Source: Escherichia coli (GTDB taxonomy: Bacteria > Pseudomonadota > Gammaproteobacteria > Enterobacterales > Enterobacteriaceae). From it: a DNA stretch of 64,000 nt. The DNA lies in NCBI RefSeq assembly GCF_024502345.1, contig NZ_JALDNN010000001.1. One strand, given 5' to 3'. How positions within the stretch are numbered: position 1 is the stretch's first letter; every line of letters begins with the position of its first letter. Both the position numbers and the translations under genes were made by a program. Under the pieces are notes generated by a model. That model ran no database searches, was not told where the DNA came from, and saw only the letters and a program-made list of their open reading frames with translations. Below, piece by piece: positions 2,154-2,230 of this stretch.

Positions 2154-2230
2154 CGCGGGGTGGAGCAGCCTGGTAGCTCGTCGGGCTCATAACCCGAAGG
2201 TCGTCGGTTCAAATCCGGCCCCCGCAACCA
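2154..2230 (+). tRNA. metY: initiator tRNA-fMet (CAU anticodon), fMet1-type sequence with G at position 46
   Basis: 77-nt sequence CGCGGGGTGGAGCAGCCTGGTAGCTCGTCGGGCTCATAACCCGAAGGTCGTCGGTTCAAATCCGGCCCCCGCAACCA matches E. coli initiator tRNA including CCA end. Confidence 0.95.

Follow-up and report, generated by a model that had tools for sequence, protein, structure and literature searches.

In Escherichia coli K-12 the initiator tRNA occurs in two forms, tRNAfMet1, which carries m7G at position 46, and tRNAfMet2, which carries A46, and all four initiator genes of E. coli B encode tRNAfMet1 (passages of PMC3017606, citing Mandal & RajBhandary 1992). The K-12 initiator pool consists of approximately 75% G46 and 25% A46 tRNA, the latter being a separable minor species that derives from metY and has no m7G46 site (PMC8887418). 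The modified base is made by YggH/TrmB (PMC7949028), and a tertiary pairing of m7G46 with C13-G22 is described in a passage of PMC6320965. Gene copy number sets the initiator tRNA level, and cold sensitivity results from the loss of metZWV, not from the loss of metY alone (PMC3017606). Among K-12, BL21(DE3), C, Crooks, W and Nissle 1917, the metY of K-12 alone departs from the "canonical G46" (bioRxiv 10.64898/2026.04.16.719103). The difference between K-12 and B at position 46 of metY has thus been in the literature since 1992, and the state of this base reported below is already known. Here we describe the metY gene in a stretch of E. coli DNA of 64,000 nucleotides (hereafter the window), and compare its base 46 with that of other E. 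coli genomes and other bacteria.

The metY gene and its base 46

The sole tRNA gene across the 64-kb window is a plus-strand tRNA-Met(cat) gene (ARAGORN), 74 positions of which (2154-2227) are matched by the Rfam tRNA model RF00005 with 61.4 bits and E=1.7e-12. This single initiator tRNA gene has argG on its 5' side in divergent orientation, and the rimP leader and rimP-nusA-infB on its 3' side (Table 1), and these flanks identify it as metY rather than as a member of metZWV. The locus and the operon are common to the window and K-12, and the metY of E. coli B, the same 77-nt gene with G46, likewise lies between argG and rimP-nusA-infB. The K-12 genes metZ, metW and metV, by contrast, follow one another in tandem between mltA and amiC, with another promoter and other flanks. 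Two terminator-like hairpins are found inside the rimP leader (2352-2375 and 2400-2412). On the far side of argG, at the place of yhbX in K-12, window positions 1-470 hold a gene whose annotation in other genomes is "helix-turn-helix domain-containing protein"; 236 complete genomes share this arrangement.

Table 1. Features of the metY region and of base 46, and the agaA frame, in window coordinates.
Feature	Position	Strand	Description and evidence
argG	463..1806	-	447-aa ORF and annotation of homologous records; divergent from metY
Upstream promoter-like site	2032..2061	+	TTGACA-18-TATAAT; 12/12 consensus match only; spacer substitution vs K-12 and B at 2047
Proximal promoter-like site	2109..2138	+	TTTGCA-18-TAGAAT; consensus match only; substitution vs K-12 and B at 2116
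metY	2154..2230	+	77-nt initiator tRNA-fMet gene, anticodon CAT, tRNAfMet1 (G46) type; ARAGORN, Rfam RF00005, sequence identity
G at canonical tRNA position 46 (m7G46 site)	2200	+	sequence; 7-gene comparison; 60-mer counts
rimP leader	2319..2419	+	Rfam RF01770, cmscan 102 bits, E=6.3e-18; between metY and rimP
rimP	2437..2889	+	ORF 2425-2889, position inferred from FDAARGOS_943 annotation; leading protein-coding gene of the metY-rimP-nusA-infB operon
nusA	2917..4404	+	495-aa ORF; collinear with K-12 nusA
infB	4429-7101	+	ORF; collinear with K-12
agaA	38805-39959	-	ORF, full length

The product of the gene has a cloverleaf with a CAU anticodon (ARAGORN, Rfam and the minimum free energy (MFE) fold) and displays the features of an initiator. 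In particular, C1 and A72 form no Watson-Crick pair and are both unpaired in the MFE fold, and the lack of such a pair at 1:72 is a formylation determinant of bacterial initiator tRNA (PMC7949028). The anticodon stem UCGGG...CCCGA contains three G:C pairs at 29:41, 30:40 and 31:39, and three consecutive G:C pairs at this place are likewise an initiator feature (PMC3017606). The pair A11:U24 is also found, both in the sequence and in the fold.

An earlier note, made from the window sequence, had read the gene as a G46 (fMet1-type) initiator and quoted the variable-loop string CGAAGGTCGTCGG, which we located at 2195-2207. Base 2200, in the local context CCCGAAG-G-TCGTCGG, is the third of five variable-loop bases, in agreement with the dot-bracket fold; it is position 47 in linear count and 46 in canonical numbering because the D loop of the metY tRNA contains a nucleotide 17a. 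We aligned 2154-2230 with metY of MG1655 (two independent records), REL606 and FDAARGOS_943, and with metZ, metW and metV of MG1655. The resulting 77 columns include a single variable one, at position 46, which holds A in both K-12 metY records and G in all others. The mature tRNA encoded by the window gene is thus identical to that of K-12 metZ, metW and metV and of REL606 metY (77/77), and matches MG1655 metY in 76 of 77 bases. With G and not A at the base that separates tRNAfMet1 from tRNAfMet2, the window gene is of the tRNAfMet1 type, as had been noted. Two statements of the earlier note were confirmed by the same alignment: K-12 metY was found to carry A (AAGATCG) where metZWV carry G, and the metY of E. 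coli B (REL606) is of the G46 type, with which PMC3017606 agrees.

The G and A versions of the tRNA give the same cloverleaf with the same minimum free energy of -30.3 kcal/mol, as expected for a base of the variable loop, and any effect of the allele would concern the tertiary core or the modification of the tRNA. Given its identity with K-12 tRNAfMet1, G46 of the metY tRNA would be a substrate of TrmB/YggH, and the resulting m7G46 would enter a base triple with C13-G22 within the tertiary core of the tRNA. The product should accordingly resemble the major K-12 initiator species in modification and folding. The earlier note had pointed to position 46 as the m7G site and hence as a difference that may matter functionally. 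The site itself is correctly named; the direction is the reverse of the one implied, as it is the window tRNA that retains the normal site and K-12 tRNAfMet2 that is without it.

The intergenic region between argG and metY contains two promoter-like sites, the proximal one ending 16 nt 5' of the tRNA gene. Three positions of this region, 2015, 2047 and 2116, are substituted relative to both K-12 and REL606, for K-12 in addition to base 46, and two of them fall into the promoter-like spacers. The three substitutions might modulate how the metY-nusA-infB operon is expressed. FDAARGOS_943 is 100% identical to the window over 1950-2450 and thus carries the exact 501-nt haplotype around metY. The following genome among those sampled, at about rank 137, is 99.8% identical.

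Distribution of G46 and A46

Both alleles were counted across 5,426 complete E. coli genomes by means of a 60-mer query that corresponds to window 2186-2245 and comprises position 46 and 15 nt of metY-specific 3' flank. With this flank included, the best place in each genome is metY, ahead of metZWV. The G version has its best place at ≥99% identity in 5,046 of 5,425 genomes (approximately 93%); B strains match it at 59/59, owing to a SNP in the flank at 2245. The exact A version is present in 365 genomes, or 6.7% of the complete E. coli genomes, while 14 genomes contain neither exact version and one has no match whatsoever. The metY flanks are without a match in strain IR53017. Matches to initiator tRNA genes number between 1 and 8 per complete E. 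coli genome (median 4).

The carriers of A46 that were listed by name, about 110 of the 365, were taken from the 60 best and 60 evenly spaced matches. They include MG1655, W3110-type strains, DH5alpha, DH10B, MC4100, C600, J53, HB101, XL1-Blue, EMG2, NBRC 3301, O16:H48 and similar strains, and their genomes are all 4.5-4.8 Mb in size. Judged on strain names and genome sizes, all of these approximately 110 carriers appear to be derivatives of K-12 or recipient strains of the K-12 type. A non-laboratory origin is given for four A46 genomes, namely SF10 (duck), EC06 (human gut), YZ22MPE54 (pork) and USML2 (oil palm). They differ from MG1655 by only 0-2 mismatches over 17,303 bases around metY (99.99-100% identity), compared with identities of 99.76% for REL606 and 98.56% for the window over the same 17.3 kb. 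The four accordingly look like strains of the K-12 lineage, and are possibly laboratory or recipient strains. From the sequences compared, A46 at metY is a mark of the K-12 clonal lineage in every case examined, that is, among the roughly 110 of 365 carriers listed.

Beyond the E. coli collection, an exact 37-mer of the A46 tRNA core had no match among 100,044 bacterial and archaeal species representatives (one genome each). The corresponding G46 37-mer, used as a positive control on the same species set, matched at least 120 stretches across Gammaproteobacteria, and the matches listed include Pseudomonas, Vibrio, Shewanella, Aeromonas, Photorhabdus, Providencia, Enterobacter, Citrobacter, Klebsiella and Escherichia albertii. 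In all nine single-copy Enterobacterales loci examined, the G46 tRNA lies approximately 100-200 nt 5' of a rimP leader, by which we recognise these genes as orthologues of metY. The occurrence of G46 in the orthologues, together with the absence of A46 from the species representatives, indicates that G46 at metY is ancestral and A46 derived. On this distribution G46 is the ancestral and near-universal state in E. coli, and A46 a derived one seen, among the carriers listed, in the K-12 lineage only, for which a single G-to-A change in the ancestor of K-12 would be the most parsimonious account.

Strain background and alternative readings

Aligned with MG1655, the window is collinear with positions 3,257,600-3,320,000 at 98.55% identity (898 mismatches in 62,106 aligned bases) and is, on this comparison, clearly not K-12. 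The non-K-12 background that the earlier note had suspected is therefore upheld, both by this divergence over 62 kb and by the occurrence of A46 only in K-12-lineage genomes among those sampled. Base 46 by itself is a narrower indicator, as judged from its distribution: G46 excludes K-12 and indicates no particular lineage. None of the complete RefSeq E. coli genomes exceeds 99.1% identity over the core genes of window 1-25000, most of them lying between 95 and 99%, so that the lineage of the source strain lacks a representative in this collection. The YraJ usher allele of the window, looked up by exact protein identity, is present in 1,056 blocks of the collection and is no guide to the strain.

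Further differences from K-12 and other strains are found at some distance from metY. In the aga (N-acetylgalactosamine) cluster, the stretch 39200-40400, with a junction near 40080/40081, is contiguous in none of the 5,426 complete E. coli genomes; in other genomes 39200-40080 aligns to agaA and the end of agaF, and the remainder aligns elsewhere. Most of agaF-agaE-agaW thus seems to be missing from the window, a deletion of its own that differs from the agaW'/'agaA deletion of K-12. Between yhaB and tdcR, the window has a 1.06-kb insertion relative to K-12 (approximately 52671-53728), which matches copies of IS903B (IS5 family) at ≥99% and contains a 322-aa ORF at 52727-53695 on the minus strand.

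It might be argued that the G at 2200 stems from an error of sequencing or assembly and that the true state is A46, for instance through reads of metZWV collapsed into metY. In K-12 these genes differ at base 46 only, and short reads could in principle be misassembled. G, however, is present in 5,046 complete genomes and in every outgroup examined, and A occurs only in K-12-lineage genomes among those sampled, from which the window is 1.45% diverged. A priori, nothing speaks for A at this position, and we regard such an error as extremely improbable. Slightly more room, though still very little, is left for the reverse polarity, in which A46 was original in E. coli metY and repeated gene conversion from metZWV gave rise to G46, so that the window allele would be derived. 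Multi-copy tRNA genes undergo concerted evolution, and the four initiator genes are otherwise identical, both of which would suit conversion. The reversed polarity is at odds with the G46 of nine other Enterobacterales metY orthologues beside the rimP leader, with the lack of the A46 core in all 100,044 species representatives, and with the confinement of A46 to one clonal E. coli lineage among the carriers sampled.

The earlier note had also given emphasis to E. coli B as its example of a G46 metY, and one may ask whether G46 is a sign of an origin from the B lineage (BL21/REL606). The REL606 gene does share G46 and is identical to that of the window. As a lineage-specific trait, however, G46 fails, since an allele common to 93% of genomes, and found in other genera, does not discriminate between lineages. 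Around the gene, moreover, window and REL606 differ at four of 501 positions (2015, 2047, 2116 and 2245), which places the window outside the B lineage, and no complete genome exceeds 99.1% identity over 1-25000 in a collection that includes B genomes. A B origin has in our view practically no chance of being correct. We retain the reading of G46 as the ancestral state, with A46 as a change that is restricted to K-12.

Initiator tRNA in the source strain and in K-12

It is in our judgement nearly certain that metY heads the metY-rimP-nusA-infB operon of the window and encodes tRNAfMet1, which would leave the strain with one initiator species, and that G46 is ancestral and A46 a derived change restricted to K-12. 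This explanation draws on sequence identity, locus, allele frequencies and outgroup states, all of which are observed; the m7G modification and the single species would follow from them, as would any consequence for the phenotype. The metY product would be the same molecule as that of metZWV, and the initiator genes of the source strain would thus all yield this one tRNA species, fully modifiable to m7G46, as in E. coli B, instead of the K-12 pair of an m7G46 tRNAfMet1 and an A46 tRNAfMet2. metY would contribute roughly a quarter of the initiator pool and would be co-transcribed with rimP-nusA-infB.

For the window the result is of little importance, since the gene is a normal initiator tRNA gene and shows just that the strain is not K-12. 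What is added here is scale, with 93% of genomes carrying G, 6.7% carrying A, and A46 in 0 of 100,044 species, and this modest extension concerns K-12 rather than the window. We consider it quite probable that the A46 "tRNAfMet2" is private to the K-12 lineage, that the pool of two isoforms is a quirk of one isolate, and that the window represents the ancestral condition with a single isoform; the possible tuning of operon expression by the intergenic substitutions belongs to the same proposal.

In practice, the result bears on annotation and interpretation. As K-12 is the outlier at position 46, a metY gene with G46 should never be annotated as a variant. The A46 allele of metY may serve as a handy single-base marker of K-12 ancestry, e.g., for laboratory contaminants or transconjugant recipients that were deposited as field isolates. 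If A46 is indeed private to K-12, the two-isoform initiator pool studied in that strain would be an idiosyncrasy of one isolate, and work on tRNAfMet2 and on the two isoforms would be applicable to the K-12 lineage only.
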